Position numbers and translations under genes: made by a program. 64,000 nucleotides of DNA from a virus: the IMG/VR virus record IMGVR_UViG_3300008265_000001; one strand, written 5' to 3'. The notes beneath the pieces are model-generated. The model did not search any database. It had not been told where the DNA came from and worked only from the letters and a program-made list of their open reading frames with translations. Of this stretch, positions 30,101-47,224 are shown in pieces. Within the stretch, counting starts at the first letter, position 1. The number at the start of each line of letters is the position of its first letter.

Positions 30101-32014
30101 CGCTTTTACCGTAATGGACTGCGTATCGGGCTTGTAGAATCTTCCACAGTACTAAATATCTCAAGTGGAGCGCTCAAAGTTGGTTACTATGAGAATAGGG
30201 TTACCCAAGCCCCTTATTTTCTGTCGAACTTACGCTTGACTGTAGGGAAAGCACTCTACACAGCTTACCAACATGATGTACCTCTGATTCCGTACAACCA
30301 AGTGACAAATATCCTTGATGTTAGCGAACTGCTTGACTACATTTCGCTAGTGTCGGACAACAATGTGCCAAATAAGGCTATCAACGGCAATACGCTGTCG
30401 CTTACCTTCAACAGTATCATCGCACTTACTAACTTGCCTGTAGTGACAATTTTAGGGCAAGCTGCAACTGTTACCAACACCATTTACAATACTTATGTCG
30501 CCACACTTCTAGTAGACGAGACAATTGACCAACAAGTATATTTCAACATTGCTATTCACGATGAGCCAAGCCTACCTAACAAGGATTTTAGCGCGACTAC
30601 TAACGGAACTTCAGTATTTGTTGAGAATAGCCCTTTTACTATTGTTTTGGCGACTACGCAGCCTAACGATAACAGCTTTAAGCTCTATGCAACTGCCACA
30701 CTCAATAAAGATGCCCCAGCGTTCAGTTTGGTTTCGCTGACACTCACTAATTGTATTGTAGGCGGCTTAACAAAAGCAAGTAATAACAACGTATACACTT
30801 TTGAAGTGCAAGCTCTCACAAGCGGAGATTTTAGCTTAGCAGTTTTGGCTAATGCTGTCAACTCTGCAATTGGAACACCTAATTTAGCGTCAAACACATT
30901 GACTAGGGCTGCTGTAGTTCCCGCTTACCTTCCCGACCCCTACTACAACAATTTGCTGCTCTTCATTCAACCCACTGGAACAAATATTATTGATGAGAGC
31001 CAATACGAATGCTCAATTGCAGTAAACAATGTGACCGTAGTAAATGATACTTTCCCTACGGGTTTGCTTAAATCGATGAAGTTTTCAGGTCAGGGTTCAA
31101 GTTTGGTAGCGACACTGAATCAGCCCCTATCAGCCAATCAGGATTATTGCATCGAGTTCTATATCTATCTGTCATCGCTGACCACATTCTCTCTTTCTGC
31201 CCCTATTGCAAGTCCTGCATCGTCGGTTACACCAACTTCATTTGATATTAGTTGGAGTGATGTTGCTGGAGCTACTGATTATGTAGTTGACATCTCAAAT
31301 ACGAGTGATTTTTCTAGGAAAGTGGATGGATTCGATAATAAGTTGGTCGGTGATGTAAATAGTGTCTCAGTTACTAGCAATTCAGCATTGGAATCACCTA
31401 TTGTAGAACTCAATAGAGTTAAGGCAGAAAAAGGATTTGTTGCGGAATGGGGAAAAAGAGCTGGAAGTATAGGATATCGCGTAGTAACTTCTCTCAGTAA
31501 TACATTCAATAGTGCTATTTCTTCTGTTTTTACAAAAAGTAACAATGTGTCAGTGGGAGATTTAACAGATTCATTTGAATATGTGCCAGAATCTGTAGTA
31601 ATCGATGGGGGCTCTTCAAGTGGTTCTTTTTCCTCTAATAGCATCCTTCAAGGCATTCTCTCGTCGGGTTCTAATTCACCAAAAATCTTTGCCTTTAATG
31701 ACGAAAATACAATTCGCTGTTACAAATCACAACCAAACTATACAAGTCCGATGGTAGCTGAAGACATTGAATCAAAACAATGGTTCCATTTGAGTATGGT
31801 TAACTCCTCAGCTACAAAATCTACAAAATTATACCTAGATGGTATTTTGGTTGATAAGCTCAAGAATAGTGATATGGGTTGGGATTCCACCCTAAATTTA
31901 GGCTATGCCATAACCAATTTTAGCGGTTACATAACTGGATTCAGGGTCACGTATGGTGTTCAAAGATATCTGATGGAATTTACTCCTCCGACGCTCCCCC
32001 TTCCAAAAAACTAG
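27104..32014 (+). CDS. 1636-aa adhesin-like virion protein with several LamG (Laminin_G_3-like) jelly-roll units and FN3-like units
   Basis: Recurrent W/F-x-H-hydrophobic...L(Y/F)(V/L)(D/N)G motifs (THFAVSREENNLYFYVNG, PHFAITKKGNVYRFYRNG, QWFHLSMV...KLYLDG). FN3-like PTSFDISWSDVAGATDYVVDIS. Confidence 0.65.
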   Translation: MEGKTLAKYLASADATNSVVEDVYFNDVILLISGNAADNSRGLPFSRDYSRYQRHVKNYTGTNTESSINYPINDIPSLAGVTSCLYIPNYLNRINRAAELNTGQNVSNVLPTYADIQLSGWSDGFSLGTGNFTIELSFFTDNIVPIQTIFSVNTCLNSNVFNPSQLPALGATGGYGLFLVNSDLYFSAKGASFKINNSPIVTGTFYTVCIQRIGNTLQTFLNFLETHVSACNFNLAHSVANNIDTRDYRLFLGISPFFSSFGNQVTNLIDASFSGGISNFRITENIARYPSTFYSVTLPFPKSGIANRIDPNYSDTLFNFPLQFDAYNYASNLKRLASPTLRQNTPNFNTGFLELDGNTTYVSEQITTNLSTSTWTLELYLGLFENSAPLTTAKTLLDWLANNLSNTEGVEKVNLLKLTSNGKLVASIDFNFYADYAGQGGFARTAPYISFSVSEDGTTWRSFASETNNSVNPTYPTTNYFLPSSDIIFYHNASITSNITTSTTAIASPFSEPNTHFAVSREENNLYFYVNGVLVKTVAYSGTLYQESAKLELNFGSLYTPWVSSNASSKRSLGVKGLRVTNTARFISTTVPNDYFYSHCLQPLPTTTGVLTHPKARILAIVPVINNPSISTGTCQWYVYVAQAFDSFVLADFSLTQIEGVSGASLVSLVKNNELEYVVTANTGTGNGKLTLNFVDRRTVKYKGTNTLISNYTGELSFTGQTYVINKNAPIPTITSGSSPYINESFTCTLTWDAAIITFDITKVGVSNGVLSNLVLINEITQTYQFNVTPEKQGVVYVQALEGAGVTDGAISSSKSNLLARVYAEAFPILQLPLDLSNTFYDVSPNQYQLDEIIPNNTLFSSTVFPIGTNSSLAVVPQLEQSGLTYDNFEAIGQGSSLVMNGDWTIEFHYRGNTFNPQNTTHLFSVEKEGTGFAILAVNGNIQVVRSIDLTSNLFPAVTLRESDIFSSGAPIYPAYENGAYTLQQKFPHFAITKKGNVYRFYRNGLRIGLVESSTVLNISSGALKVGYYENRVTQAPYFLSNLRLTVGKALYTAYQHDVPLIPYNQVTNILDVSELLDYISLVSDNNVPNKAINGNTLSLTFNSIIALTNLPVVTILGQAATVTNTIYNTYVATLLVDETIDQQVYFNIAIHDEPSLPNKDFSATTNGTSVFVENSPFTIVLATTQPNDNSFKLYATATLNKDAPAFSLVSLTLTNCIVGGLTKASNNNVYTFEVQALTSGDFSLAVLANAVNSAIGTPNLASNTLTRAAVVPAYLPDPYYNNLLLFIQPTGTNIIDESQYECSIAVNNVTVVNDTFPTGLLKSMKFSGQGSSLVATLNQPLSANQDYCIEFYIYLSSLTTFSLSAPIASPASSVTPTSFDISWSDVAGATDYVVDISNTSDFSRKVDGFDNKLVGDVNSVSVTSNSALESPIVELNRVKAEKGFVAEWGKRAGSIGYRVVTSLSNTFNSAISSVFTKSNNVSVGDLTDSFEYVPESVVIDGGSSSGSFSSNSILQGILSSGSNSPKIFAFNDENTIRCYKSQPNYTSPMVAEDIESKQWFHLSMVNSSATKSTKLYLDGILVDKLKNSDMGWDSTLNLGYAITNFSGYITGFRVTYGVQRYLMEFTPPTLPLPKN

Positions 32015-32876
32015 TAATTTCTTCCTCAGTAGCAAAACGCCACCCTAACCATTCAGGTTCACAACTTTTAAATCTTCTTTGAGCGGTAATGAGAGCTATT
32101 TTTTGAAATCGGGCAGCTTGAGAAATTGATATATAATATTTATCGTCTATTATTACAGGTTTGCTATTAGGAGAAGCTGCCCTCATGTTAGTTTTAGCTT
32201 CTTCTGTAACAATTTTCCCTTTGGCTGACGCACTCATTTTTGCTCTGGTTTCAGGTGAGAATACCCTTCCTTTACCCGCAGCGCTTATTTTGTCTCTAGT
32301 TTCTTTACTACAATTTTTACTATTAATACTAATTTTAGCTTTAGCCTCTTCAGTATGACGATAACCAAGACCATTAGTATTACCTTTACAAGAAATACTT
32401 CTTTTGGCTCTGGTTTCAGGTGATTGTACCTTACCTTTCAGTGAGTTACTTATTTTTTCACGTGTTTGAATATCACGTTCTTTCCCTTTTTTAGCAGCCG
32501 CAATCTTAGCTTTGGTTTCTTGTGTAATAACCTTACCTTTGTTAAAAGCACTAATTTTTGCCTTATGCTCTTCTGTAAGAGCTAAGCCTTTACATCCCCT
32601 TCCACCAATTTTCATATTGTAGATATCTTCACGGCTTATAAACTCTTTATTGACCATCTCTTCTTCAGCTTCATAAGCATCATCGGCGCAGCTAAATTCA
32701 GCTAACGTAGCTCTAGTAAAATTTTCTCTGCCATGTTTATTGATTGCCGCACGTAGACCGTCACCACTACCTAAATATTTCCTAGATTTTGCAGTATTGG
32801 CAACTTTATGTACCCCAACATAAATCTTGCCATTCAACAAATTCGTAGTTTTATACAAAATCCAAGTGTCAGCCAT
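31980..32876 (-). CDS. GIY-YIG homing endonuclease with about 8 NUMOD3 repeats (copy 1)
   Basis: MADTWILYKTTN..NGKIYVGVH...R...H; repeats of x(T/S)(E/P)E(T/H)(K/R)AKIS...KGK. Start moved to the ATG at 32876. The 3' end overlaps 27104..32014 by 35 nt. Confidence 0.8.
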   Translation of the reverse strand: MADTWILYKTTNLLNGKIYVGVHKVANTAKSRKYLGSGDGLRAAINKHGRENFTRATLAEFSCADDAYEAEEEMVNKEFISREDIYNMKIGGRGCKGLALTEEHKAKISAFNKGKVITQETKAKIAAAKKGKERDIQTREKISNSLKGKVQSPETRAKRSISCKGNTNGLGYRHTEEAKAKISINSKNCSKETRDKISAAGKGRVFSPETRAKMSASAKGKIVTEEAKTNMRAASPNSKPVIIDDKYYISISQAARFQKIALITAQRRFKSCEPEWLGWRFATEEEITSFLEGGASEE

Positions 32877-32893
32877 TGCAAATATCCCATATC

Positions 32894-32918
32894 CATGTAT
32901 AATAAATACAGTATAACA
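32894..32918. promoter_or_regulatory. 25-nt conserved core CATGTATAATAAATACAGTATAACA holding back-to-back -10 boxes (TATAAT towards RHH, TGTTATACT towards GIY-YIG)
   Basis: Identical 25-mer, reverse-complemented, at 37405..37429. Confidence 0.55.
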
Positions 32919-32932
32919 CACGTGAGTACAAA

Positions 32933-33085
32933 ATGCGTCCTGATAAAAGCAAAAGATTAAATGCGAAATTGTCCGTAAAAAGACATGAAAAGTTGATGAA
33001 ATATGCCGAGTCGCAAGATAAGGATATGACATCAGCTATAGAGTGCTGGATTGATAGTCTTCCAGAAGTCCAAGTGTTAAACTAA
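32933..33085 (+). CDS. 50-aa ribbon-helix-helix (CopG/Arc-like) protein, copy 1; not in the supplied track
   Basis: MRPDKSKRLNAKLSVKRHEKLMKYAESQDKDMTSAIECWIDSLPEVQVLN has a beta-helix-helix pattern. A paralog of the same length lies at 37235..37387. Confidence 0.55.
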   Translation: MRPDKSKRLNAKLSVKRHEKLMKYAESQDKDMTSAIECWIDSLPEVQVLN

Positions 33086-33110
33086 AGTAAACACTTCCAT
33101 TACCAACCCA

Positions 33111-33575
33111 ATGACATACCAAACTTCAGACTTCTTTTTTAAAAGTTTAGCTACTCAAGGTCAAGCCATCATAAACACTTTGAAAAACAAAGGTCAACAA
33201 GCGTTAGTGCCTAAAACAAAGCAAAGCGCTATAGATGCGTTCAATCAAAAGAATGTAGCAGCTATTGGCAATCAAAAACTGAATAACTCACCATTCTCAC
33301 TAACTCGCGACCAACGCTCTGCAAATGTGAAGTATGGAACTGCTCCAGATGCCCGTGTAGAGGCTTTGGCATCACAGTCTGTAGGCAGAGGATTATCTAA
33401 GCAACAAGCTCCTAGACAGCCCCAAAGAAAGCTTGCGCCTGATGAATTCTATGATGCGGCGGGAGTGATACGTCGAAAAATGAGTGTTGGTAATTGGAAG
33501 AGTCAACAACAATTCCAGACGGGGCAATATGGAGGATTTTCAGCGCCTAATTTCGTACATTTTGCAAATTTCTAA
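33111..33575 (+). CDS. Q/N/K-rich hypothetical protein ending ...FVHFANF
   Basis: 154-aa ORF. Confidence 0.5.
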   Translation: MTYQTSDFFFKSLATQGQAIINTLKNKGQQALVPKTKQSAIDAFNQKNVAAIGNQKLNNSPFSLTRDQRSANVKYGTAPDARVEALASQSVGRGLSKQQAPRQPQRKLAPDEFYDAAGVIRRKMSVGNWKSQQQFQTGQYGGFSAPNFVHFANF

Positions 33576-33577
33576 AA

Positions 33578-35512
33578 ATGGGGAAATTTGTCAAACGTGA
33601 GAACAATGGGCGCGTATTCCTAAAAGACTCGCAAACAGATGAGTGGTTACTTATATCGAACCAATCGACCGTAGACACAAAAGTACAAACGAGAACGAAA
33701 CAAAGAACCAGTAAGGAATCCCTCTTTAAACTTGTTACAGTAAAAAGATTAGAAGGTATTTCTTTAGAAACTATCACTTCTCGACTAAGAACTTCTCAAG
33801 CCAACTTAGAAAGAGCTGCTGTATTAGCCCAATTTCCTATTCCAGCGCCTGTTAAGTTCCCAGAAACAGATGAGGATGCTATAAACTATTTCTCTGTTTT
33901 TATTGATGAAGATTTGAGGGGTAGTAATGAGCCAATCTTCACTTTTTTCTCTTCTAGCTACCAAACACAAATCCGCGCCTATGTTAGCGCCAATTCTGCC
34001 AATCGTGGTGGTTGGAGTGTTCACTTAGCTTATGTCAAATCGGTTAAAGACAAGCAAGATGGGCTTAAAGAAATCGACTGGACTTTGGTTAGCATCGATA
34101 ACGCAGATATAGCCCCTTATGGTGGTTCTACGCCTATAACAGAGCGTCAGACATACCAACTAGACCTAGATGCCACTGGATTGCCTCGGTGCTTCAAGTC
34201 AAACTTCTCACTCGATAATTTGACTTATCTTGGTGGAGGTATATGGTCATGCCTAGTTATCGACCCAGAAGACCGCATACCTGTTTACGGTGTAGCTTCC
34301 ACCAGCGATACCCGCTATAAACGTATTTCTAATGGTGTAGGAGGGAACTCGGTCACTGTGACATCATATAGTGTCACTCCAACATACTCTTTTACGTGGT
34401 GTCGTGGTCAGTCAGTACTTAGAAAGCGTACTCGTAGTGCAGCAGTTGAGTTTGACCAAGAAGCATTTGATGACAGCGCTGTGCTTGTGCAGAAAAGGAA
34501 ATCATTCTACTCTCTTGACCTAACTTTGCGTCCTGAAATGTCGAGCAATCAATTGGTGCAAAAGACAATCACTGAAGTATGCAACTCAGAGGCTACTTAT
34601 GTCGGTAACACCAATTATTTTCTGTTCTCTCCAAGGCAGTCGCCCGATTATGGGACAGATTTAGCTCGATTCAGCTTACAAAAATATCAGCAGCAGTCTA
34701 ACGTCATTCGTCCTAATGCTTGGGGTGTTTTGGCAGCATCTAAGGAAGGCTCATTGCTTTTGCACCTCGATATGGGCATGGCAGAAGGAAAAATCGAGCA
34801 TCCTTACGAAATCAAGAGTACGGTTGGCAAAAGAGGTGTTAGTTACGAGTGGCAATACAAAAGTTGGTGGGCATACGGGAAAATTCAGGATTATTACCCA
34901 TTAACTAAAAATCAGTATACCTATTTTGTCAGTCGAACATTTGGCACTGAGGTTCCTTCGACTTTATTTGTTGATGGTAGTGCGCCTTATGGAGCTTTGA
35001 TAAAAACTGCGCCAAATCAAGTACAAACTACTTGGGATGCACCGCCTTTGCCTGAGACTGGCTATTTTCCGATTCGTCGAGGAGAATTTAGCTTCGTGTT
35101 GCGGTATTCGATGCCACCATTCTTTTCGCACGAAGGTTGTTACTACTATCAAGTCAATCCAGAGCGTATAGGCTCAAGCTCGTCATCTGGTGACAGGGTT
35201 TACGATAATAGTGTTGCACCAGCACAGCCTAGCTTCAGTCTAGCGCCATCTTTCAGTTCACAAGATGATACTAACCCAAATTCCAAGCAAAACGGCTATA
35301 TAGCTACATACACGCAAATTTTAGGGGCTTTAGATGGTGCAAGTGTTAGTAGCTTCAATATTGGATATAGACCGATTGCTGCAAGTGATACTGAGTCGAT
35401 TTTGGTACTTTCACCTAATCCAGAGCAGAAGTTGAGATTGAGCCAAGAGCCATCGTTATTTCCTAATGCTTTTATAGGAAGTGTAAATGAGAATATTGTA
35501 ATTAATGATTAA
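33578..35512 (+). CDS. hypothetical large protein
   Basis: 644-aa ORF; no motif recognised. Confidence 0.55.
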   Translation: MGKFVKRENNGRVFLKDSQTDEWLLISNQSTVDTKVQTRTKQRTSKESLFKLVTVKRLEGISLETITSRLRTSQANLERAAVLAQFPIPAPVKFPETDEDAINYFSVFIDEDLRGSNEPIFTFFSSSYQTQIRAYVSANSANRGGWSVHLAYVKSVKDKQDGLKEIDWTLVSIDNADIAPYGGSTPITERQTYQLDLDATGLPRCFKSNFSLDNLTYLGGGIWSCLVIDPEDRIPVYGVASTSDTRYKRISNGVGGNSVTVTSYSVTPTYSFTWCRGQSVLRKRTRSAAVEFDQEAFDDSAVLVQKRKSFYSLDLTLRPEMSSNQLVQKTITEVCNSEATYVGNTNYFLFSPRQSPDYGTDLARFSLQKYQQQSNVIRPNAWGVLAASKEGSLLLHLDMGMAEGKIEHPYEIKSTVGKRGVSYEWQYKSWWAYGKIQDYYPLTKNQYTYFVSRTFGTEVPSTLFVDGSAPYGALIKTAPNQVQTTWDAPPLPETGYFPIRRGEFSFVLRYSMPPFFSHEGCYYYQVNPERIGSSSSSGDRVYDNSVAPAQPSFSLAPSFSSQDDTNPNSKQNGYIATYTQILGALDGASVSSFNIGYRPIAASDTESILVLSPNPEQKLRLSQEPSLFPNAFIGSVNENIVIND

Positions 35513-35582
35513 GCGGTTGAGGAATTACGATATCCTGACTCCTACTTGGAAGGTAGGCATATTTCCTCTATACTACAACCGC
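35512..35582 (-). tRNA. tRNA-Gly(UCC)-like gene with a non-canonical T-loop
   Basis: Minus strand: GCGGTTG-TA-GTAT-AGAGGAA-ATAT-G-CCTAC-CTTCCAA-GTAGG-AGTC-AGGAT-ATCGTAA-TTCCT-CAACCGC-T. Perfect 7-bp acceptor and 5-bp anticodon stems. U8, A14, G18G19, A21, U33, A37, C48 and U73 are present. The T-loop is ATCGTAA rather than TTCRANY and 53:61 is T.T. Confidence 0.55.
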
Positions 35583-35698
35583 ATGAACACCAATATTAGC
35601 TTCCGTCTCCACCTGTGGTAGCCTAGCCTTTATGCGGCTAGACGCAGCGTTGAAACTGCCACTTTCACTAAGCAATCCGAGACACTCGGAAGGGTGTA

Positions 35699-35778
35699 AG
35701 CCAGTCGCGGGAATCGAACAAACCGCTATCTGTTGGTTATGAGCCAACCGTGATTATTATCCATGTCACTCCACTGGC
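35699..35778 (-). tRNA. tRNA-like element with a CAU anticodon (Met or Ile2), aberrant T-stem; possibly a pseudo-tRNA
   Basis: Minus strand: GCCAGTG-GA-GTGA-CATGGATAATAA-TCAC-G-GTTGG-CTCATAA-CCAAC-AGATA-GCGG(TTT)G-TTCGATT-CCCGC-GACTGGC-T. Canonical anticodon and T loops, but a 3-nt bulge in the T-stem, G8, a 7:66 G.G pair and a 12-nt D-loop. Confidence 0.35.
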
Positions 35779-35827
35779 ATTTATTAATATAACACAATAT
35801 TATTGACTTACATATCTATCTTAAGGA

Positions 35828-36244
35828 CTATTCTGCAAATTCTCCATATTTCAAGTATTTTTCCAAAGCTTTGTGTGAGGCAATATATTCTTTACGCAAT
35901 CGATGAAACTGTTTGTCAGCAATCTCGTTGAAATGACTATAACAAAGGAAGCAGTAGCTAAATCCCTCGTTGTCGATACGGTCGTGAAGTGCTTGCAAAT
36001 CTTCGTCACTAAGGTTGATACTAGTAGATTCCACAAGCTCTACAGTATTAACATTTAGTCTTGCAGGAGTAGTTTCACCGTTAACCCAATATACTTCAAA
36101 ATGACCACCAGCTAAATTAGCTTCATCGTAGTCAGATACTGTACCAACTGTACCTGACGGAATTAAAGCTTCACCGTAGACTATTTGTGCAATAGCTACA
36201 ACTTTGTCGCCTCTGTTTATTGACATATTATCTCCAAGGAACAA
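35828..36244 (-). CDS. hypothetical protein (likely start at the MSINRGDKV ATG, 36226)
   Basis: 138-aa ORF in the minus-strand operon. Confidence 0.5.
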   Translation of the reverse strand: MFLGDNMSINRGDKVVAIAQIVYGEALIPSGTVGTVSDYDEANLAGGHFEVYWVNGETTPARLNVNTVELVESTSINLSDEDLQALHDRIDNEGFSYCFLCYSHFNEIADKQFHRLRKEYIASHKALEKYLKYGEFAE

Positions 36245-36284
36245 ATTTCATAACAAGCAAAATTGCCAAAATCCAAGTAATCAC

Positions 36285-36479
36285 TTATTTTTCCTCGTCA
36301 GGTGCAACTTCGTAAACTTCAGAAATCAGTAATCTATGCTGACCGAACAAAGACGTGCCAACATTTATTTCTATGTCCGTAGTGTGAAATTCACCTTGGT
36401 CAAGTCCAATAGTTGCTTCTGGGTATTCTGCTTCAAAAGATTGAAGATATTTGATAAATTCTGGAAGTGTGTATTTCAT
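36285..36479 (-). CDS. small acidic hypothetical protein
   Basis: 64-aa ORF in the same operon. Confidence 0.4.
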   Translation of the reverse strand: MKYTLPEFIKYLQSFEAEYPEATIGLDQGEFHTTDIEINVGTSLFGQHRLLISEVYEVAPDEEK

Positions 36480-36488
36480 AATTACTAG

Positions 36489-37235
36489 TTAACCATAAAA
36501 GCATGAAACATTATATGTAACCAGAGAGGTATCTTGCTGTTCTGGTCGAAAACTGCGGTCTTCGCTGTAAGTTTGTAAATATTGCACATTGCTGCCAAAA
36601 ATGCCGTAAATATCAGCCGTGAAAATTGATTGTCGTTCTGGGAGTTGTTGCCAAGAGGTATTGCTGCTACTTGGGTAGGTTTTGGTAGGTTCTAGGCATC
36701 TGTAGTAGCGATTGGTGTATTTTACTAAACTTCCTTTTGCGAATGGCTCAAAGACGCTGCTAGGACTTGCTCCAAGGTCTGCGAATTGGTCTGTGGGTTT
36801 TTGGATTGTGTTGGTTATAAACTTGCTGTCAACAATCAGAGAATAACGTGGGTCAAACTTGGGAATGAGAAACTCACGAAAATATACGGTATTCAAGGCA
36901 AGCCCAGAATTACCTAGAATTGGATGAATTTCGCTTTTTCGACCGATTTCGCGCCTGTTGATTTTCTCTTTAAAGATTTGTGGAGTGACGGAGCCTGTAA
37001 GTCGGGTTTCTGTGCCGAGACGATTTATGAGTGAAATCGTTGGGCGGTAAGAGGTGGAGGCATTTATGATGTTGGTAAGGGCATAGAGGGGGAAGTGCTT
37101 GTCAAAACTTCCGTTTAAGCTGAAATGGGCATCATTGTCCTCAGCGATGAATAGCGTAGAGAATGGTTTTCCAACTTGGTTTCGAGGAGCGAGGAATGAG
37201 TGACCAGAGACGACTGGGAAGGTGAAATCGGGCAT
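36489..37235 (-). CDS. hypothetical protein with a possible CBM5/12-like carbohydrate-binding motif
   Basis: 248 aa. FAKGSLVKYTNRYYRCLEPTKTYPSSSNTSWQQL fits Y..G..V.Y.g..Y.c......P.....W. The ATG overlaps the RHH-2 stop (TAATG). Confidence 0.5.
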   Translation of the reverse strand: MPDFTFPVVSGHSFLAPRNQVGKPFSTLFIAEDNDAHFSLNGSFDKHFPLYALTNIINASTSYRPTISLINRLGTETRLTGSVTPQIFKEKINRREIGRKSEIHPILGNSGLALNTVYFREFLIPKFDPRYSLIVDSKFITNTIQKPTDQFADLGASPSSVFEPFAKGSLVKYTNRYYRCLEPTKTYPSSSNTSWQQLPERQSIFTADIYGIFGSNVQYLQTYSEDRSFRPEQQDTSLVTYNVSCFYG

Positions 37236-37387
37236 TATTTTGCTGTTGTGTCAGGTAAAGAGTCAATCCAATCCTCAAAAAGACAGGTCATCTTTTTTTG
37301 GCGGGAGTCAGCATAGTTCTTGAATTTATCCATGCGCTTCTCAGATATAACCGCATTAAATCTTTTGCTTTTATCGATATTGCTCAT
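37235..37387 (-). CDS. 50-aa ribbon-helix-helix protein, copy 2; not in the supplied track
   Basis: MSNIDKSKRFNAVISEKRMDKFKNYADSRQKKMTCLFEDWIDSLPDTTAK. Shares DKSKR(L/F)NA and (C/D)WIDSLP with copy 1, plus a 17-nt identical stretch GATAAAAGCAAAAGATT. Confidence 0.55.
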   Translation of the reverse strand: MSNIDKSKRFNAVISEKRMDKFKNYADSRQKKMTCLFEDWIDSLPDTTAK

Positions 37388-37404
37388 TGTTTATGTTTTT
37401 TATA

Positions 37405-37429
37405 TGTTATACTGTATTTATTATACATG
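37405..37429. promoter_or_regulatory. second copy of the 25-nt back-to-back promoter core (TGTTATACTGTATTTATTATACATG)
   Basis: Exact reverse complement of 32894..32918. Confidence 0.55.
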
Positions 37430-37447
37430 AAAGGATGGGTATGTGCA

Positions 37448-38224
37448 ATGGCTGAGACTTGGATATTATATCGAACTACGAATTTGTTGAATGGCAAGAT
37501 TTATGTTGGGGTACATAAAGTATCTGATACCAAGCACTCAAGACGTTATTTAGGTAGCGGAACAATTCTAAAGCCAGCTATTGAAAAATACGGCAGGAAA
37601 AATTTTACTAGGACTACATTGGCAGAATTTAATAATTGTAAAGATGCCTATAAAGCTGAAGCAGAAATGGTTAATGAGGAGTTCCTTAAACGCACTGATA
37701 TTTACAATGTAAAACTGGGAGGGGAGGGTAGTGTAGGCTTTAAACCTACCGAGCAGACTAAAATAAAGATGAGTATTGCAAACAGAGGGAGAGTTGCTAA
37801 CGAAGAACAAAAGCTAAATTACAGCAGAGGTCAACTTGGTAATAAAAAATGGTTAGGTAAACACCATACGGAGGAGTCTAAAGCGAAAATCAGTGCTGCT
37901 AACAAGGGACATACACGCACTGTAGGTAAAATTTTAACTCCAGAAAATAAAGCTAAACTAATAGCTTCAAATATAGGTAGGGTTAAATCCAAAGAAGAGA
38001 TTGAAAAACTCAGGGTAGCTAATAGCGGAGCAAATAACTCTGGAAGTATAGCAGTTGTGATAAATGGGGTATATTATCCTACAAAAAAATTTGCAGCCGA
38101 AGGGGAAAAAGTAGTTCCAGCTACTGTATCGGACAGAATTAAAAGTCCTAAGTCGAAATGGGATGGTTGGAGACTGGCTACTGATGAAGAAAAATCTATC
38201 TATGGTTCTAGTACGCTAGAATAG
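37448..38224 (+). CDS. GIY-YIG homing endonuclease with NUMOD3 repeats (copy 2)
   Basis: MAETWILYRTTN..NGKIYVGVH. A 48-nt stretch (37474..37521) is identical to copy 1 (32803..32850, minus strand). Start moved to the ATG at 37448. Confidence 0.8.
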   Translation: MAETWILYRTTNLLNGKIYVGVHKVSDTKHSRRYLGSGTILKPAIEKYGRKNFTRTTLAEFNNCKDAYKAEAEMVNEEFLKRTDIYNVKLGGEGSVGFKPTEQTKIKMSIANRGRVANEEQKLNYSRGQLGNKKWLGKHHTEESKAKISAANKGHTRTVGKILTPENKAKLIASNIGRVKSKEEIEKLRVANSGANNSGSIAVVINGVYYPTKKFAAEGEKVVPATVSDRIKSPKSKWDGWRLATDEEKSIYGSSTLE

Positions 38225-38251: not shown

Positions 38252-39781
38252 ATGCCTGTCGCAGAAGAAGCCATACAATTAAGCTTATTAGAAGACCTAG
38301 ACGATTCTTTGTTGTTTGCTGGGACTCCTACTCCAATGGCAGCACTTCGCCAAGGGCAATATACGAGCGAGTACCAGAGCCTCACGACAGACGCACTTGC
38401 ATCGATAACTCACCCTAACGAAAACGAGCGCCCTCCACTGAAATTGCTCAGCGAGATGGCAAACCGCGACCCCATAGCTGCCCAGTGTCTAGCTTTCAAG
38501 GCACTACGCGCCCAAAATTCGTTTGGTTCATACGTCCATCCTAAGAAAGAGATAGAAGCTTTTGTAAATAGCAATCTCAAAACTCTCCCTAAAAGTTTTA
38601 AGAAAATTCTGTTTCAATTATTCTCCTCAGTCATCCTACACGGTGTCGCGGTCGCAGAATTTACAAAATCATCGAAGGTGCGAGGATATAGGGGGCAGTG
38701 GCGAATTGCGAATATTAACGTATTAAATCCTGAAAATATCATTAGTTTCGGAAAAACGATAAATAAGGGTGGGCATATAGAATTTATCGAGTACGACAAT
38801 GGAAATGGAAAAATAGTGAAAATTCCATATCAGAAATGTCTGCATATTACGAATAATTCAGGTTCCGCCTTTGACCGCATGGCTGTTTGGGGTATTGGTG
38901 ACGGTCTGAGCGCTCTGAATTATTACAAATTAAAAAAAATTGTGCTCACACATCTAGCTCTCCGCATCAAAAACGACAGCGAAGGTCTACTCTGGGCAAA
39001 AACACCTAACAACGGCACAACCACAATGGTTGATACCCAAGGTAACGTCAAAAAAGATTCCAAGGGCAAGCCACTTCAATTAACAAAACAAGCTGCTCTC
39101 AGTCATCAACTAAAAGACATTCAAAAACGCGGATTCATTGTTACTGACAACGATGTTGAACTCAGCCGCATCCAAATTCAAAACACCAGCGAAAATCACT
39201 TCAAAGCGCTAGAATACATCGACAGAGGCATTCAATCAAGCTTTGCTATACCTTCGGGCATCTTTGACGTTAATAGTGGCTCAGGCACAACAAATCTAGG
39301 TAACAACGGCTTTGGTCAAAACTTCAAGATGACCTTTGACTCGACAATCTTTGCCTTAACAACCACACTCAAACACGAAATTATCCACAAGATGATTCGT
39401 GGCTTATTGCACGATAACTTCCCTTCCAGTTGGTTCAGTGAAGATTGGGGCGAGTTTGTATTCGATGTCGAAGAAGACCAAGCAACAGTTAACGGTCGTC
39501 TTAGCACCATCACCTCTCTCATTGCATCTGGCATTATCCCTGCTGATGACGTTGAGGTACTTGGGCTTATCCGTAAGAATCTCGGATTACCTTCGCTTGA
39601 CGATGAGGAAAAACGCAAAAAAGAAGAAGACGCGCTCAAGGCTGAGGTACAAAAAGAACTTGAGAAACAAAGTCAGGTACTATCCTTACAGGCTCAGATA
39701 AATCAGCTTCAGGCTCCTCCTGCACCGCCAGAAGGACAAGCTGAACAATATCCTCCTCAAGAGGGAGGTCAAGAAGGTTAG
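38252..39781 (+). CDS. portal protein candidate (DUF935/Mu gp29-like pattern)
   Basis: 509 aa. RDPIAAQCLAFKALRAQ..., HGVAVAEF, WGIGDGLSALNYYKLKK and a coiled-coil acidic/Pro-rich C-terminus. Judged by eye only. Confidence 0.5.
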   Translation: MPVAEEAIQLSLLEDLDDSLLFAGTPTPMAALRQGQYTSEYQSLTTDALASITHPNENERPPLKLLSEMANRDPIAAQCLAFKALRAQNSFGSYVHPKKEIEAFVNSNLKTLPKSFKKILFQLFSSVILHGVAVAEFTKSSKVRGYRGQWRIANINVLNPENIISFGKTINKGGHIEFIEYDNGNGKIVKIPYQKCLHITNNSGSAFDRMAVWGIGDGLSALNYYKLKKIVLTHLALRIKNDSEGLLWAKTPNNGTTTMVDTQGNVKKDSKGKPLQLTKQAALSHQLKDIQKRGFIVTDNDVELSRIQIQNTSENHFKALEYIDRGIQSSFAIPSGIFDVNSGSGTTNLGNNGFGQNFKMTFDSTIFALTTTLKHEIIHKMIRGLLHDNFPSSWFSEDWGEFVFDVEEDQATVNGRLSTITSLIASGIIPADDVEVLGLIRKNLGLPSLDDEEKRKKEEDALKAEVQKELEKQSQVLSLQAQINQLQAPPAPPEGQAEQYPPQEGGQEG

Positions 39782-39849
39782 GGTTTGTGTTATATTAAGT
39801 AGATACGATTTCTGTATTCATAAAAATAATTTGTTTCATTACACGTGAA

Positions 39850-39884
39850 CCCCTCTAATTAGTTTTAGAGGGGTTTTTCTTTTG
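39850..39884. terminator. bidirectional rho-independent terminator between convergent genes
   Basis: CCCCTCTAA-ttagtt-TTAGAGGGG, followed by TTTTTCTTTT on the + strand. Confidence 0.7.
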
Positions 39885-39885
39885 T

Positions 39886-40734
39886 CTAAGCCATGAACTT
39901 AGTAAAAGTCACACCTAAGATTGGAAAATCCTCTTTAGAGTAGACGGCAACTTTAGCTTGATTGCCGTTGATAATGCGATACCCACGCTTAATAGGTTGT
40001 TGGCGCAAAGTTTTGTACGTCTCTGCAATTGCACGACCTAGACCAAGCATTTTACCTCGTTCAAGACCGCCAGCAAGAATGCCCTTCTCTTGAGCAAGCC
40101 ATTCGGTCACACTCCAAGTACGCTCGTTAGCTGGGGCAAGAATGTAGTCCGAATCCTCTTTTTCAAGTTCAGCAAGTTCGATTTCTTCAAAAAGAACATT
40201 AAGTCCTTTCATGTGATTATCAGCAACTGTCTTTACAGTACGCCAAGATTTCACCTCTTTTGTTAGCGACTCGACGTTTTGATTGGTTGAACGGACATCA
40301 GCAAGAAGGGCATTGAGAGTCTCGTTTAAGCTGTGATGACTCATTGAATCTGAAAATCCAGTAACTTTTTTGACCCAACTTGTGAATCCCATTTCTAGGA
40401 ATTTATCCAGAGAACGTTTAGCAATTTCAGTTGGTGTCTTGGCATCTGTCGCGTAATGCTTGATAACTTGTGCAGCTACTCTAGCGGTAACAATTCTAGC
40501 ACCTCTCACGCCAGTTAGAGACTGGTGAAAAATCTCATCTGCAAAGGGTTTCAGCGATTCGGGCAGTGTTTTAGAGACACCTGAAAACATTTCACTTAAA
40601 TAGCCCCGACTAATACCACAGAGCCTAGAAAGCCCTGCAATAGATACCCCTGCTTCAGTGCCGTCATTACTCACATAAAACTCAATACCGTTTTCAGCGA
40701 CAATTGGTTTTACTGTTTCGATTTGTGCATTCAT
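39886..40734 (-). CDS. 282-aa putative DNA-binding / antirepressor-like protein, paralog B
   Basis: See 26154..27002. Confidence 0.6.
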   Translation of the reverse strand: MNAQIETVKPIVAENGIEFYVSNDGTEAGVSIAGLSRLCGISRGYLSEMFSGVSKTLPESLKPFADEIFHQSLTGVRGARIVTARVAAQVIKHYATDAKTPTEIAKRSLDKFLEMGFTSWVKKVTGFSDSMSHHSLNETLNALLADVRSTNQNVESLTKEVKSWRTVKTVADNHMKGLNVLFEEIELAELEKEDSDYILAPANERTWSVTEWLAQEKGILAGGLERGKMLGLGRAIAETYKTLRQQPIKRGYRIINGNQAKVAVYSKEDFPILGVTFTKFMA

Positions 40735-40764
40735 AAAAATAAGTTAGTGATTGACTACCTAATT

Positions 40765-40773
40765 AATATAGCA
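40765..40773 (-). promoter_or_regulatory. extended -10 (TGCTATATT on the minus strand) for paralog B
   Basis: Aligns with TGCTATAGT upstream of paralog A, and both are followed by GTA(A/G)TCAAT...TATTTTT..ATG. Confidence 0.45.
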
Positions 40774-40798
40774 CACAATTTTATAAACCGCACAATAA

Positions 40799-40875
40799 AT
40801 TTTTGTCCGAACGCCCTTTCCTTGTTCAGTATGACTTTCAAGCTATTTTTGTCCTCTAAATGCGCGAACGCCCTT
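40799..40875. repeat. two copies of ATTTTTGTC+CGAACGCCCTT, the second split by a 12-nt insert
   Basis: Copy 1 is contiguous at 40799..40818. Copy 2 is 40844..40852 plus 40865..40875. Confidence 0.7.
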
Positions 40876-41029
40876 AGCCTTCTTTTTCTGCCTCTGCTTG
40901 CTCTTTTTTCTTTCTGACGTATTTTTTAGTTTCTTTCTCTACAACAGGACTGATTAAATTTTGTAGCCCTGTTTGATAAATATTTGCAAAATTGCTATTA
41001 GGTGCAGCAAAGTAAGTAAAGTGTTTCAT
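40874..41029 (-). CDS. small 51-aa ORF not in the supplied track (MKHFTYFAAPNSNFANIYQ..., Lys/Glu-rich tail)
   Basis: ATG lies 7 nt after the stop of the FN3 gene on the same strand. Confidence 0.4.
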   Translation of the reverse strand: MKHFTYFAAPNSNFANIYQTGLQNLISPVVEKETKKYVRKKKEQAEAEKEG

Positions 41030-41036
41030 AATTCTG

Positions 41037-43736
41037 TTATGGAGTAGTATCGATTGTTACAGTAGATGAGTAGTTTGAGATTTTGTTACTATTGAACCCG
41101 TAGATTCGGGCAAAGTATTGAATTGTCCCGCTTAATCCAAATATAACAAATTTGTTATCGGCACTTCTTGTAACACTAAGCTCTTCCAAAATAGTAAAAG
41201 TATTTGCACGACTAATTTCAAGTGTGTAATCAGTTGCATTACTTACTTGCGAAAAAGTTAGTTCTGCCTGACTCTCATCAATTATATTGACATTAGTGAT
41301 ACTTGGCGCAGAAGAAATAGCAAGCTCAGTGTACGGCTCAGCAGGTGTATTGATTGTCAGTGTAGTTGATGGCGAAGCAGTGCGATTAGTTCCGTCATAT
41401 CCATAAGCACGTAAATAATATGTGCGGTTAGGCTTAAGTAGCAGTTCTAAATTATTGGCTTCGCTTTCAATATAGGTGTTGTCAAGCGTAAAACCACTAT
41501 CTCGCGCCAAATTGAGTAAATACTTGGAATAACCACTTAACACTATGCTTGCTCGGTCAAAATCAGCGCTTCCGCTAAGAGCTACTGTAGGAATCGTAAG
41601 AGATGCAGTGCTAGGTTCTTCTGTATCACTAAACAGATTAGTTTTGAATAAGTATGGTATAGAAACGTTCGAGTTTGAGTCATAAATTAGTACCTGATAT
41701 TGTGTGTCAGCAGAAAGAGACTCGAATGTGTAGCTATTAACATCCCCAACATTTTTTGGGAACGTGAAGCCACTTAGAGGCACATAATTGCCAGTATCTA
41801 GCACTTTTAGTTGGACGCTATACGAAGTAGCTCCAGCACTGCGTTTCCAGAGGGCAGAAAAGGAGGTTTTTCCAATTATGCCTTTATAGACCGCCAAAGC
41901 TGATGTATTGACTGTATTGGAGTAAATGCCCCCATTAAAGTTGCCTCGGATATAGTAATTGGTACTAGAGTCGAGCAAATTTTCTACATTGAAGCTGCCA
42001 TTGTCTGCTACGCTCCTCGGATACCCCTTTAGCAAGAATTTGAAGTCAGAGTCAGTACTAACTTCGAGATTGTTGAGGTTGTACGTCCAAGTAAGTAGAT
42101 TTTTAGCTAGTTGCAGTATGGGGGCAGCAGCTTTGGTGGTGAATGTCTGTATCGCAGTTGTTTTTGTGTCTCCAGATGCAGTCTTACCAGTGATTGTGTA
42201 GCTGTAATTGCTGCTCGGCTCCAAAAATAGGTCGATTGTATGTGTGTTGGTGTTGCCGAGACTCTTGTTACGATAGAAGTTGACTCCTAAGTAAGCATTT
42301 GACTCAGTTTTCCACACTGAAAGCAAATAATCTGTGTAGCTACCATTTAAAGTCCACCCAATGACTGCCGAAGTATCGGTAATGCTAGTTGTAGCAACTC
42401 CAGTGATGCTTGTAAGGGCTGCTGAGGTCGTTGTAGTGACTGAATTGGAGTAATCTGAGGACTGGCTTGAATTGAGCGCCCTAATACGTGAATAGTATGT
42501 AGTTGCAGGGCTAATTCCTTCATTTAGTAGCAAAGACCCAACATTGCCAACAATAGTTGAATAAGCAATAGAAGCAAAAACTGATGAAGTACTTAATTCA
42601 AATAAATAACGGTTGGCGTAACTGCGTAAAACCCACTGAAACAAAATGCTTCGAGAAGTGATTGTTGTTGGAGTTAGTAATTGTGGAGGATTCAGTGACG
42701 AGTTAAGTGAAAGAGTAGCGACAATTTGAGTAGCTGAATATGCAGTTGTTTGCCATACAGAAATTGCCCTGACTCGAACGTAATAAATTGTATTTGCCGT
42801 TAGTCCTGTGAAATTGGCAAAGTTATTTTTGGTAGTTACGGTTTGAGTAATAACACTAAAATCTGAAGTTGCTGAAATCTGGATACTGTAACTATCCGCC
42901 AAAGTCACTTTGCCCCAGTATGCAGAAAAAGAACTTAGGTAAATGTCGGTAATATTACTAATATTGGGAGTTGCAAGGTTCTGGAATTGCTCGTCGTAAG
43001 TTAGTGCGTCATGGAGCGTCGTAAAAGTGACTACATTGCTGTTTGCTGACGTAGTTGTGCCATCGGAAGCTCTGACACGGTAATAGTATTGAGTGAGCGC
43101 CGTAAGTGACCCTATATCGCGAAAACTAACATCTCCAGCGTTGACATTGTTGAGGATTAGTGAAGTGAAAGCGGCATCGGTTGCCAAATCTACAAAATAA
43201 GTGGTAGCGTCAGTTACTTTGCCCCAATTAAGTCGAGCCGCAATAGCTGTGAGATTAGTTGTGCCTAAAGCATCGGAAATGGGGAAGTTTGGTATGGTTG
43301 AGAGCGAAGCAGAAGTCCACGCCGAAAGTCCAGTTGCATTAGAGAAGCGTAAACGATAATAGTAGAGTGTGTTTGCCGTCAAGCCGCCAATAGTGAGTGC
43401 TATAGTTTCTTTTTCTGTCCCAACTACGTTGCTGCCAAGCAAGAACGTCAAATTGGAGTAAAGTGGTGCGCTGAAATCGGCATTTACTGATACGTCTAGT
43501 TTTAATTCTTTTATGTACTCATTAGGTGCAGATTTTTGTATTTCTATTTTTAAGGAACTACTGTTTTTTTCTGCTGCTATTATTATTGGTTGAGAAGGTG
43601 ATGGAGGCGTAACGCCAATACCAAGTGAGGATGCAGGAGTAGTTACCGATACTATGTTTGAGTATGCAGATTCACCATCAAGATTGACAGCTTTAGTGCG
43701 GTAGTAGTAGGTAGTTGAAGGTTTAATTAAAGTCAT
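41037..43736 (-). CDS. 899-aa protein built from about ten tandem FN3-like repeats
   Basis: A periodic ~90-aa unit, each ending in a (T)xYYxR(V/I)RAxxxxxxSxxSxxV-type motif (YYYRTKAVN, YYYRLRFSN, YYYRVRASD, YYVRVRAIS, YYSRIRALN, and others). Confidence 0.7.
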   Translation of the reverse strand: MTLIKPSTTYYYRTKAVNLDGESAYSNIVSVTTPASSLGIGVTPPSPSQPIIIAAEKNSSSLKIEIQKSAPNEYIKELKLDVSVNADFSAPLYSNLTFLLGSNVVGTEKETIALTIGGLTANTLYYYRLRFSNATGLSAWTSASLSTIPNFPISDALGTTNLTAIAARLNWGKVTDATTYFVDLATDAAFTSLILNNVNAGDVSFRDIGSLTALTQYYYRVRASDGTTTSANSNVVTFTTLHDALTYDEQFQNLATPNISNITDIYLSSFSAYWGKVTLADSYSIQISATSDFSVITQTVTTKNNFANFTGLTANTIYYVRVRAISVWQTTAYSATQIVATLSLNSSLNPPQLLTPTTITSRSILFQWVLRSYANRYLFELSTSSVFASIAYSTIVGNVGSLLLNEGISPATTYYSRIRALNSSQSSDYSNSVTTTTSAALTSITGVATTSITDTSAVIGWTLNGSYTDYLLSVWKTESNAYLGVNFYRNKSLGNTNTHTIDLFLEPSSNYSYTITGKTASGDTKTTAIQTFTTKAAAPILQLAKNLLTWTYNLNNLEVSTDSDFKFLLKGYPRSVADNGSFNVENLLDSSTNYYIRGNFNGGIYSNTVNTSALAVYKGIIGKTSFSALWKRSAGATSYSVQLKVLDTGNYVPLSGFTFPKNVGDVNSYTFESLSADTQYQVLIYDSNSNVSIPYLFKTNLFSDTEEPSTASLTIPTVALSGSADFDRASIVLSGYSKYLLNLARDSGFTLDNTYIESEANNLELLLKPNRTYYLRAYGYDGTNRTASPSTTLTINTPAEPYTELAISSAPSITNVNIIDESQAELTFSQVSNATDYTLEISRANTFTILEELSVTRSADNKFVIFGLSGTIQYFARIYGFNSNKISNYSSTVTIDTTP

Positions 43737-46449: not shown

Positions 46450-47217
46450 ATGAGAATTTCAGCATACGCAAGAGCAACAAATCCTAAATACGCCAATTTT
46501 GCTGTAGATTGGGCAGGTTTAGCAGGTCAGCTTGGTACTAAGGCTGGTAAAGCTTTATCCACTACTGGAGGCACAGCTAAACTTGGTGCTGGCATCGGCG
46601 CAGGTGTCGGTGCAATTAACTATCTCAGGAGTGAAGACAAGTCGATTGGCAATCTTGCAGGTCAAGTAGCTGGTGGTGCTGCATTGGGTGGCGCTGCTGG
46701 TTATGGTGGGTCAAGTCTACGAAATGCTTGGCAAGCACGTAAGGCTGGCAATCAGGCTATGTTGGCTCCTGCGGCTTCTACAATGCCTCAACCACAAGCA
46801 CCAGTCCCTACAAGTAATGGTCAACCTATCCAAACTGCTCCACCTAAACAACAAGCTCAATTACCTGCGGCTCAACCTATTCAACGACCACAGCCTACTC
46901 AGAATGGGGTAATAGTAACACCTGCCCCTGCAAGTCAGCAGACTATTGATACTACGGCTATCACTGTCCCAAATGCAAGTGGAAAAACCCAATCTGGCAA
47001 TTCTCAGCCATATCCTTTAGCTAATCAAAATACTCAAGGAGTGGGACAAGAACAAATCGGTACACTTTCACAAAAACGTAGGAAAGTTCAATTAAAAACT
47101 GCCCCAGCAGGAACGTATCAAACTAATGGATTGCCTCCTACTATAAGTAACAACAGTAAAGCTGAATCCCCTTTTGCCAATTTTAAAGTGCGTCGTTACA
47201 ACGGCTTTGTGTATTAG
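46450..47217 (+). CDS. ANF / Gly-zipper family protein with a P/Q-rich linker
   Basis: 255 aa. N-terminus NPKYANFAVDW...AKLGAGIGAGVGAINYL...GGAALGGAAGYGG; C-terminus SPFANFKVRRYNGFVY. Confidence 0.6.
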   Translation: MRISAYARATNPKYANFAVDWAGLAGQLGTKAGKALSTTGGTAKLGAGIGAGVGAINYLRSEDKSIGNLAGQVAGGAALGGAAGYGGSSLRNAWQARKAGNQAMLAPAASTMPQPQAPVPTSNGQPIQTAPPKQQAQLPAAQPIQRPQPTQNGVIVTPAPASQQTIDTTAITVPNASGKTQSGNSQPYPLANQNTQGVGQEQIGTLSQKRRKVQLKTAPAGTYQTNGLPPTISNNSKAESPFANFKVRRYNGFVY

Positions 47218-47224
47218 TGAAGTT

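Follow-up and report, generated by a model that had tools for sequence, protein, structure and literature searches.

The 64,000-nt stretch of DNA analysed here (hereafter, the window) is the IMG/VR virus record IMGVR_UViG_3300008265_000001, a region about 80% identical to the Pseudanabaena phages PA-SR01 and Pam2. It carries two inverted cassettes, each of which pairs a GIY-YIG/NUMOD3 homing endonuclease gene head-to-head with a gene of 50 amino acids (aa) coding for a predicted ribbon-helix-helix (RHH) protein. Both the paralogous nucleases and the paralogous small open reading frames (ORFs) had been proposed from the nucleotide sequence, and all four, like the other features described there, lie at the coordinates given, as follows:

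31980-32876, minus strand: GIY-YIG/NUMOD3 homing endonuclease gene 1, an ORF of 298 aa, in the left-site cassette
32933-33085, plus strand: RHH gene 1 (type A), 50 aa, first gene of a rightward unit that continues into genes of 154 and 644 aa
37235-37387, minus strand: RHH gene 2 (type B), 50 aa, with a stop codon overlapping the ATG of a 248-aa gene
37448-38224, plus strand: GIY-YIG/NUMOD3 homing endonuclease gene 2, 258 aa, in the right-site cassette, co-directional with the portal gene at 38252

No further cassette was found in the 64-kb window, which contains exactly two copies of each gene, and neither TnpB nor TnpA was detected at the two loci. Both nucleases matched PHROG 314, annotated as 'homing endonuclease' (E = 3.8e-51 for nuclease 1 and 2.2e-47 for nuclease 2). 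The Pfam NUMOD3 model, with a cut-off of 20.4 bits, recovered six repeats in nuclease 1 (66 bits, E = 2.7e-18) and two in nuclease 2 (42 bits, E = 6.9e-11), and a modular DNA-binding region made of these repeats and a C-terminal helix-turn-helix is present in the nucleases. Scores of the two proteins against Pfam GIY-YIG (15.7 and 12 bits) and SegE_GIY-YIG (17.9 and 20.3 bits) remained below the respective cut-offs of 22.6 and 25. The residues of the GIY-YIG motif are invariant across six homologues at the W-I-L-Y, K-I-Y-V-G, Arg, Glu and Asn positions, and the C-terminus of nuclease 1 aligned to the DNA-binding domain of I-TevI (1i3j, E = 0.016).

The two small proteins of the window share 49% identity. 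Comparison between cassettes gave a ratio of nonsynonymous to synonymous substitutions (dN/dS) of 0.03-0.15 with a dS of about 1, meaning that synonymous sites are near saturation and the protein is conserved, the pattern of real coding genes under purifying selection. An exhaustive profile search retrieved 208 relatives of 45-80 aa with the family consensus MKxKRLxxRxSxxRxxKLRxYAxxxDKTMTQxIEDWIDxLP. Among 94 members of the family, Pfam matches were to 56B_RHH (27), RHH_10 (26), CopG_antitoxin (18), RHH_1 (11) and ParG (9), with others to DUF6364 and, for only 3 of the 94, to Arc. When searched against the PDB, the family profile hit ParG (1p94, E = 1.2e-3) followed by other RHH chains (HP0222, 56B, ParD, KacA and CopG). 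The AlphaFold2 model built from a 94-sequence alignment reached a predicted local distance difference test (pLDDT) score of 90.7; residues 1-14 form an extended stretch, two helices span 15-27 and 32-42, and all five models agree on this topology. Nearly all of its Foldseek neighbours in the PDB are RHH proteins, including PutA, CopG, Arc, AmrZ and ORF56, fitted with a root-mean-square deviation of 0.9-1.4 Å across 37-38 residues; Arc (1myl) was among them with a template modelling (TM) score of 0.78. The first neighbour in BFVD was the PA-SR01 orthologue, followed by CopG- and Arc-type viral proteins, and the named neighbours there are mostly of RHH, CopG or Arc type. Model, structural neighbours and family-profile matches bear out the RHH fold that the sequence-only reading had assigned to the two ORFs and support a strand-helix-helix topology for the small proteins.

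Such a fold could also belong to an antitoxin. In that case the RHH protein would bind the endonuclease protein as an inhibitor and the pair would act as a toxin-antitoxin-type addiction module, an explanation that draws on the frequency of RHH proteins among type II antitoxins, on weak matches of family members to the CopG_antitoxin, Antitox_RHH, TacA1 and ParD models, and on the archaeal RHH/MazE-TnpB pairs that have been proposed to be toxin-antitoxin modules (Altae-Tran et al. 2023, PMC10691335). We consider it very improbable. The genes are divergent, with no toxin-antitoxin-type operon, and close nuclease homologues exist without any RHH gene. At 47-50 aa, the protein barely exceeds the bare RHH fold, with only about eight residues past helix 2, and this short tail varies with the insertion site and not with the nuclease. 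RHH antitoxins bind their toxins via a longer C-terminal extension, and a role at the protein level is unlikely for a protein that has no extension beyond the fold.

Presence and absence of the cassettes in related phages

Three genomes form a series in which the two sites fill up. Both sites are empty in Pam2, where the fibre-like gene is directly followed by a 131-aa gene and 42 nt separate the 248-aa and portal genes. PA-SR01 carries the left cassette only, its small ORF being annotated as a hypothetical protein, and has a right site identical to that of Pam2. In the window both sites are filled, by inserts of about 1.05 kb on the left (about 32030-33080) and about 0.99 kb on the right (37236 to about 38225), the latter replacing the native 42-nt divergent spacer. 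The inserts contain nothing beyond the nuclease gene, the RHH gene and the spacer. At the left boundary, homology to Pam2 stops at window position 32029. Endonuclease gene 1 runs past this boundary and terminates within the fibre-like gene on the opposite strand: its last 16 codons or so (31980-32029) are pre-existing phage sequence that is also found in cassette-free Pam2, and it shares 35 nt with the 3' end of the 1636-aa fibre-like gene.

Each of the ten close RHH homologues (10/10) lies on a PA-SR01-like contig, head-to-head with a GIY-YIG/NUMOD3 gene. Conversely, an RHH gene is found about 55 nt upstream in 20 of the 27 closest nuclease relatives, on viral contigs, and upstream of none of 53 more distant GIY-YIG genes. 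The nuclease and RHH pair occupies at least four sites, namely between the fibre gene and the 131-154-aa gene, between the 248-aa gene and the portal gene, and beside the homologues of 62413-63813 and of 23726-25336. The left and right sites are each known in three states: empty, with the nuclease only, and with both the nuclease and the RHH gene. The C-terminal domain of the nuclease and the last few residues of the RHH protein follow the insertion site. The N-terminal part of the nuclease, the spacer and the core of the RHH protein occur in varying combinations, which marks the cassettes as mosaics.

Across related contigs six sites are occupied in total. Four further nuclease sites, which are empty in the window, are located near 62413, 23726, 39781-41037 and 47217-47225; relatives with nuclease homologues at such sites are L102-L104, L110-L113, L106, L117 and L119. 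The 93-kb contig IMGVR_UViG_3300008121_000001 codes for three nuclease paralogues and has an RHH gene beside one of them only. At the left site of L100 and L114, the RHH gene is directly followed by the homologue of the 644-aa gene, the 131-154-aa gene being missing. In 5 of 5 genomes or contig sets with two RHH cassettes (the window, L003, L098+L101, L100+L120 and L111+L122), one RHH protein belongs to the A family (MRPDKSKRLN..) and the other to the B family (..DK(S)KRFN..), an outcome with a chance probability of about 0.03 if the lineages are independent, which may not hold. The assignment of types to sites is swapped between genomes: the window has A on the left and B on the right, and L003 has B on the left and A on the right.

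The stop codon of RHH gene 2 and the start codon of the 248-aa gene overlap as TAATG at 37233-37237. The same overlap was found at the right site of L003 (1235), L004 (2686) and L007 (1661), suggesting translational coupling of the mobile gene to the resident operon. It would fit an explanation in which the module mainly serves the phage, replacing displaced promoters and driving or insulating resident genes, with the RHH gene as the autoregulated first gene of an operon. RHH gene 1 likewise points the same way as the 154-aa and 644-aa genes, into which it leads, a native divergent spacer was replaced at the right site, and endonuclease insertions of phage T4 carry promoters that favour their retention (PMC2988022). 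However, variants that have only the nuclease get by at these sites with a 55-nt spacer, the genes downstream of the four sites to which the RHH gene accompanies the nuclease are unrelated, and members of this RHH family are partnered elsewhere by TnpB and by a pRha gene. For these reasons we regard service to the phage as unlikely to be the main role of the module, and note that it overlaps with, rather than excludes, control of the nuclease by the RHH protein.

The predicted bidirectional promoter and the repeats of RHH homologues

The gap between the nuclease and RHH genes is 56 nt in the left cassette (32877-32932) and 60 nt in the right one (37388-37447). It contains the following features:

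32876-32903, plus strand: predicted promoter of RHH gene 1, with a -35 box TTGCAA (32876-32881), a 16-nt spacer and a -10 box TATAAT (32898-32903)
32894-32918, no strand: left copy of a 25-nt core, exact reverse complement of 37405-37429, holding both -10 boxes 6 nt apart
32910-32918, minus strand: predicted extended -10 promoter of endonuclease gene 1, TGTTATACT
32911-32929, no strand: candidate type-A RHH operator, an imperfect palindrome GTATAACAC-AC-GTGAGTAC between the RHH -10 box and the start codon
37405-37429, no strand: right copy of the 25-nt core, with TGTTATACT at 37405-37413 (plus strand) toward endonuclease gene 2 and TATAAT at 37425-37420 (minus strand) toward RHH gene 2

The two boxes of the shared 25-mer, TATAAT facing the RHH gene and TGTTATACT facing the nuclease gene, were thus found in both cassettes, as had been described. 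The -35 box of RHH gene 1 overlaps the nuclease start codon, and its predicted promoter matches the consensus at 10 of 12 positions; transcription from it would begin near 32910. The predicted start of endonuclease gene 1 lies near 32903 on the minus strand, within the -10 box of the RHH promoter. For RHH gene 2 the -35 box is TGCACA (37447-37442), and the predicted starts of the right cassette are near 37420 (plus strand) and 37413 (minus strand). A consensus promoter scan of the region ranked both RHH promoters within the best three matches.

This anatomy is kept across 24 cassettes with spacers of 54-60 nt, while the flanking spacer sequence diverges. All 24 cassettes have CAT-TG, giving a -35 box TTGnnn that overlaps the nuclease start codon, then TATAAT (rarely TATACT) toward the RHH gene 16-17 nt after TTGnnn, and on the opposite strand TGnTATAnT toward the nuclease gene. 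The n of this last motif is T, C or A, a variation expected of a functional extended -10 element. The two -10 hexamers are 0-6 nt apart across the 24 cassettes (6 nt in the window), a distance that would place each predicted start within the -10 box of the other promoter. Given the known size of the RNA polymerase footprint, two polymerases at these facing -10 boxes would be mutually exclusive.

Even when up to three mismatches were allowed, the 25-mer occurred only twice in 64 kb, compared with 0 occurrences expected. The same core allele is present in L005, L009, L108 and L118; we rejected the view that the 25-mer is a product of recent conversion, as the same allele is found in the cassettes of other phages. 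The shorter motif TGTTATAYT occurs seven times in the window (5462, 32910, 35786, 37405, 39788, 41140 and 60542) versus 1.8 expected, and GTGTTATAYT four times versus 0.4 expected. Most copies of TGTTATAYT are just upstream of co-directional genes or of a tRNA, and the motif may be a general early-promoter -10 element of the phage.

The candidate type-A operator would overlap the -10 box of the nuclease. Its form GTATAACAC-N2-3-GTGAGTAC is retained in all type-A cassettes despite indels of 0-4 nt in the adjacent core, and it occupies the same position as the repeats of cyanobacterial RHH homologues. The latter were collected by scanning one genome per species with a 20-sequence subset of the alignment as query, which gave 178 RHH relatives; the 80 loci that were kept are all cyanobacterial, often with several copies per genome. 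An exact repeat of at least 7 nt is found in the 34 nt before the ATG at 68% of 74 analysable loci, compared with 4.9% of shuffled sequences. These repeats lie between the -10 box and the ATG, and their sequence tracks that of the β-strand of the RHH homologue:

β-strand GLNLRI(S/T): TGTAGAT repeated twice with a period of 11
β-strand RLNLR(I/L)S: AAGAC..GTCTT
β-strand SIR(V/I)RLS: ATGTATC..GATACAT

Repeats of this kind are the classical signature of an autoregulated repressor with an operator between the -10 box and the start codon, and their subfamily specificity suggests that the RHH homologues are autoregulated.

Homologues of the RHH gene also lie head-to-head with TnpB genes across 53-75 nt in Microcystis, Crinalium (strain PCC 9333), Calothrix, Nostoc and other cyanobacteria, and the Microcystis RHH-TnpB pair occurs in different flanks. 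P0015, a close relative from outside the phage cassettes, is TnpB-linked, and its spacer holds GTTATAGTATAACACA, which resembles the phage core. Another homologue, P0016 (50 aa; L177:1306-2330), stands head-to-head across 53 nt with a 272-aa Phage_pRha-domain gene on an unrelated 16-kb phage-like contig in which KilA-N and D5_N/primase genes adjoin; its spacer reads ..TACAGTATACAC..TGAGTA. By this arrangement, the pRha-domain gene is a third kind of partner for the RHH-plus-promoter module. Most solo RHH genes among the cyanobacterial genome loci (L016-L095) have a conserved hairpin-like motif GGGTCAnCGACC about 40-75 nt upstream of the start, followed by TATAAT or TATATT. Solo loci are multi-copy per genome (e.g. 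four in Scytonema HK-05), and the motif resembles the subterminal hairpin of an IS200/IS605-type or PATE-like element that carries only the RHH gene.

Gene conversion between the two copies and orientation of the intervening segment

The inverted repeats of the two cassettes and the DNA between them are arranged as follows:

32803-32850, no strand: left copy of a 48-nt gene-conversion tract, identical to 37474-37521 and encoding TTNLLNGKIYVGVHKV
33086-37234, no strand: resident phage segment between the cassettes, with genes of 154 and 644 aa (plus strand), tRNA-Gly at 35512-35582 (minus strand) and genes of 138, 64 and 248 aa (minus strand)
37474-37521, no strand: right copy of the 48-nt gene-conversion tract, identical to 32803-32850

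The inverted arms (32693-32887 and 37437-37631) extend over 195 nt with 76% complementarity, and a third inverted patch (32942-32965 and 37352-37375) is 96% complementary. Within the 48-nt tract, 16 of 16 third-codon positions are identical, compared with 37 of 81 outside it, and no run of 48 identical positions arose in 20000 permutations. The closest orthologue, L005, is 94.5% identical over 291 nt and differs at 8 of the 48 tract positions; the other cassettes of the set of 24 reach at most 41/48, making the tract private to this genome. These comparisons show the tract to be a recent intragenomic gene conversion between the two copies, and hence that the two arms do pair and recombine.

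Pairing of the arms also counts in favour of a flip of the 33.1-37.2 kb segment by homologous recombination, which the sequence-only reading had suggested and which might have functional consequences, as do the exact stretches of 48 and 25 nt in the inverted repeats. Past double exchanges could moreover explain why RHH types are swapped between sites (window versus L003) while the C-terminal tails remain site-specific. However, the inverted isomer was not found at any of 24 junction-spanning sequences, including four genomes with both left and right cassettes, all of which have the orientation of the window; orientation was read from assemblies, in which minority isomers of a phage population are invisible. 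No site-specific recombinase or invertase gene was found in or beside the cassettes, the identity tracts are short, and since a crossover in the core would join each operon to a promoter equivalent to its present one, inversion should have no phenotype. Gene conversion that accompanies homing in co-infected cells accounts for the mosaic pattern just as well. Taken together, a functional inversion appears highly unlikely. The segment from 33086 to 37234 is collinear in Pam2 and PA-SR01, which are without one or both cassettes, and by this comparison it is not part of the mobile units.

As to the tRNA-like genes reported between the cassettes, just one tRNA is detectable, a tRNA-Gly (UCC) at 35512-35582 on the minus strand, where Pam2 has four annotated (Arg, Lys, Asn and Gly). 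The neighbouring 200 nt or so (35583-35790) align poorly to Pam2 and PA-SR01 and have no Rfam match; the other tRNA-like genes may have decayed or been replaced.

A proposed repressor gene that travels with a homing endonuclease

We think it probable that the two loci are mobile nuclease cassettes equipped with a portable module, consisting of an RHH gene and a bidirectional promoter, in which the RHH protein represses its own promoter as well as that of the nuclease. Such control of the nuclease by the RHH protein, already put forward in the sequence-only reading, is the best-supported mechanism, on the analogy of the Arc proteins of IS605 elements and on the evidence of the operator-like repeats upstream of homologues. 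According to this model, a free-standing GIY-YIG nuclease gene would have invaded an intergenic site of a PA-SR01-like Pseudanabaena phage, arriving together with a 47-50-aa Arc/CopG-type RHH gene and a 54-60-bp bidirectional promoter. Upon entry into a cell, no RHH protein would be present, which would permit a burst of nuclease. As the RHH protein accumulates, a dimer or tetramer, most likely bound at the core or just RHH-proximal to it, would repress the nuclease promoter and its own promoter, and expression would drop to a low, autoregulated level. Such repression would limit nuclease toxicity. It would also curb unwanted transcription, which in cassette 1 would run antisense to the fibre gene and in cassette 2 would enter the 248-aa operon and the portal gene.

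Several results weigh against this model. At the level of the fold, the two window RHH proteins on their own had no match in Pfam or PHROG; relatedness to RHH proteins is therefore detectable via the family profile and not from single window sequences. A model built with AlphaFold2 from a 12-sequence alignment was one long helix (pLDDT 88), which we rejected as an artefact of the shallow alignment because the 94-sequence alignment yields the RHH topology in 5 of 5 models. The very small size of the protein explains why its Foldseek E-values are as weak as 1.5-10. At the level of the DNA, consensus promoter matches are not enriched in the region overall (21, compared with 15.9 +/- 4 in shuffles). 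A repeat of at least 6 nt is found in 53% of phage spacers versus 32% of shuffles, the longest being the two -10-like boxes themselves; no operator repeat in the phage cassettes was significant above the AT-rich background. As for the partnership, the nuclease occurs without the RHH gene in 7 of its 27 closest relatives (L105, L109, L106, L112, L113, L117 and L119), two of which occupy the left site (L105) and the right site (L109) with some 55 nt between the nuclease and the next gene, so the nuclease does not need the RHH gene. The notion of a self-contained two-gene mobile unit is borne out by the presence or absence of the whole block in related phages and fails for these seven, in which the GIY-YIG gene occurs without the small ORF, so that one of the refuting observations named in the sequence-only reading has in part been made; the nuclease-RHH partnership is frequent but optional. 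Finally, TnpB is adjacent at only about 7 of the 80 cyanobacterial loci, which led us to reject a constant link of the RHH family with TnpB, and most homologues are solo with no recurrent neighbour gene. In this respect the family comprises autoregulated regulators of a general kind, not controllers dedicated to nucleases.

Although the sequence-only reading knew of no such partnership, Arc-like RHH genes beside homing endonucleases have been noted in two surveys and never characterised. Zedaveinyte et al. 2023 (PMC10690162) described Arc-like RHH ORFs in IStrons and noted their adjacency to homing endonucleases, which Moon, Zedaveinyte, Wiegand & Sternberg 2026 (bioRxiv 10.64898/2026.09.24.754181) mentioned and did not study. 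The latter authors showed by chromatin immunoprecipitation followed by sequencing (ChIP-seq), reporters and mutants that Arc binds and represses the bidirectional tnpB-arc/tnpA promoter of IS605 elements. In IS605 elements as in the cassettes, an RHH gene of no more than some 50 aa and the nuclease gene of a mobile element diverge from a short bidirectional promoter between them, and homologues of the window RHH proteins are themselves head-to-head with TnpB in cyanobacteria. The binding sites of IS605 Arc overlap promoter elements, and repression has been demonstrated experimentally for those elements. In contrast, the partner here is a protein-guided GIY-YIG nuclease in a phage instead of an RNA-guided TnpB with TnpA in a bacterial insertion sequence, the element homes into fixed intergenic sites instead of transposing, and the facing -10 boxes are separated by 0-6 nt. 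Some cyanobacterial homologues lie within an IS605 element, whereas the window genes do not. The clade tested for Arc is Clostridial, the Pfam Arc model matches just the three family members mentioned above, and binding is predicted for the proteins described here.

A second parallel is the immI region of phage P22, in which the RHH repressors Arc and Mnt act on the overlapping divergent promoters Pant and Pmnt. Both systems combine small RHH proteins with two overlapping, mutually exclusive and oppositely directed promoters, and the burst followed by shut-off after entry of phage DNA is the logic that we propose for the cassette. The product regulated in P22 is an antirepressor and not a nuclease, and immI does not form a mobile cassette that is present in some genomes and absent from others.

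Among T4 homing endonucleases, I-TevI represses its own gene, and the seg and mob genes are promoter-less or embed promoters; a separate repressor gene has not been described for them (Edgell, Gibb & Belfort 2010, PMC2988022). The window nucleases share with this group the plan of a putative GIY-YIG domain, a linker and a C-terminal helix-turn-helix, the C-terminal match to the I-TevI DNA-binding domain, and a free-standing, intergenic and variable occurrence among related phages. Nuclease expression would be held down, as for I-TevI, by operator binding at the nuclease promoter. The difference is that a T4 endonuclease represses itself or is a promoter-less cassette, whereas repression here would apparently be left to a distinct RHH gene that accompanies the nuclease. 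The archaeal RHH/MazE-TnpB pairs likewise join a small RHH gene to a nuclease gene derived from a mobile element. There, however, both genes have the same orientation, with the RHH gene upstream, and inhibition was proposed at the protein level, whereas in the cassettes the genes are divergent and the RHH protein is without a partner-binding extension.

A broader scenario can be advanced only tentatively, and we hold it to be less likely than not. The RHH gene and its two-way promoter of about 57 bp would form a portable self-silencing module that has been exchanged between cyanobacterial IS605/TnpB elements and phage homing endonuclease genes, and at least once with a pRha-domain gene. It would time a burst of nuclease and its subsequent shut-off, and would repress in trans between co-infecting cassettes, with orthogonal types A and B being kept apart in two-cassette genomes (5/5).

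In view of the 2023 and 2026 work on Arc-like RHH proteins, the novelty of the cassettes is moderate; what is new is the partner nuclease, the mode of mobility, the phage host and a pair of facing promoters of unusual compactness. Three ways are generally assumed in which free-standing homing endonucleases keep down their cost to the phage, namely borrowed host promoters, self-repression and RNA structure. A dedicated micro-repressor that moves with the nuclease gene would, if it represses as we propose, be a fourth solution. The shared RHH family links two selfish nucleases, one protein-guided and homing, the other, TnpB, RNA-guided, transposon-borne and found in the host phylum of these phages, and the cassette brings phages within the scope of the recent work on Arc in IS605 elements. 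A further lesson is that genes of 50 aa, though absent from ORF tracks, may supply the regulatory half of a mobile element. With a three-state series (empty, nuclease only, nuclease with RHH gene) and two RHH types, the effects of the module on homing and on fitness are directly testable, making the cassette a well-defined example of a homing endonuclease that carries its own regulator.

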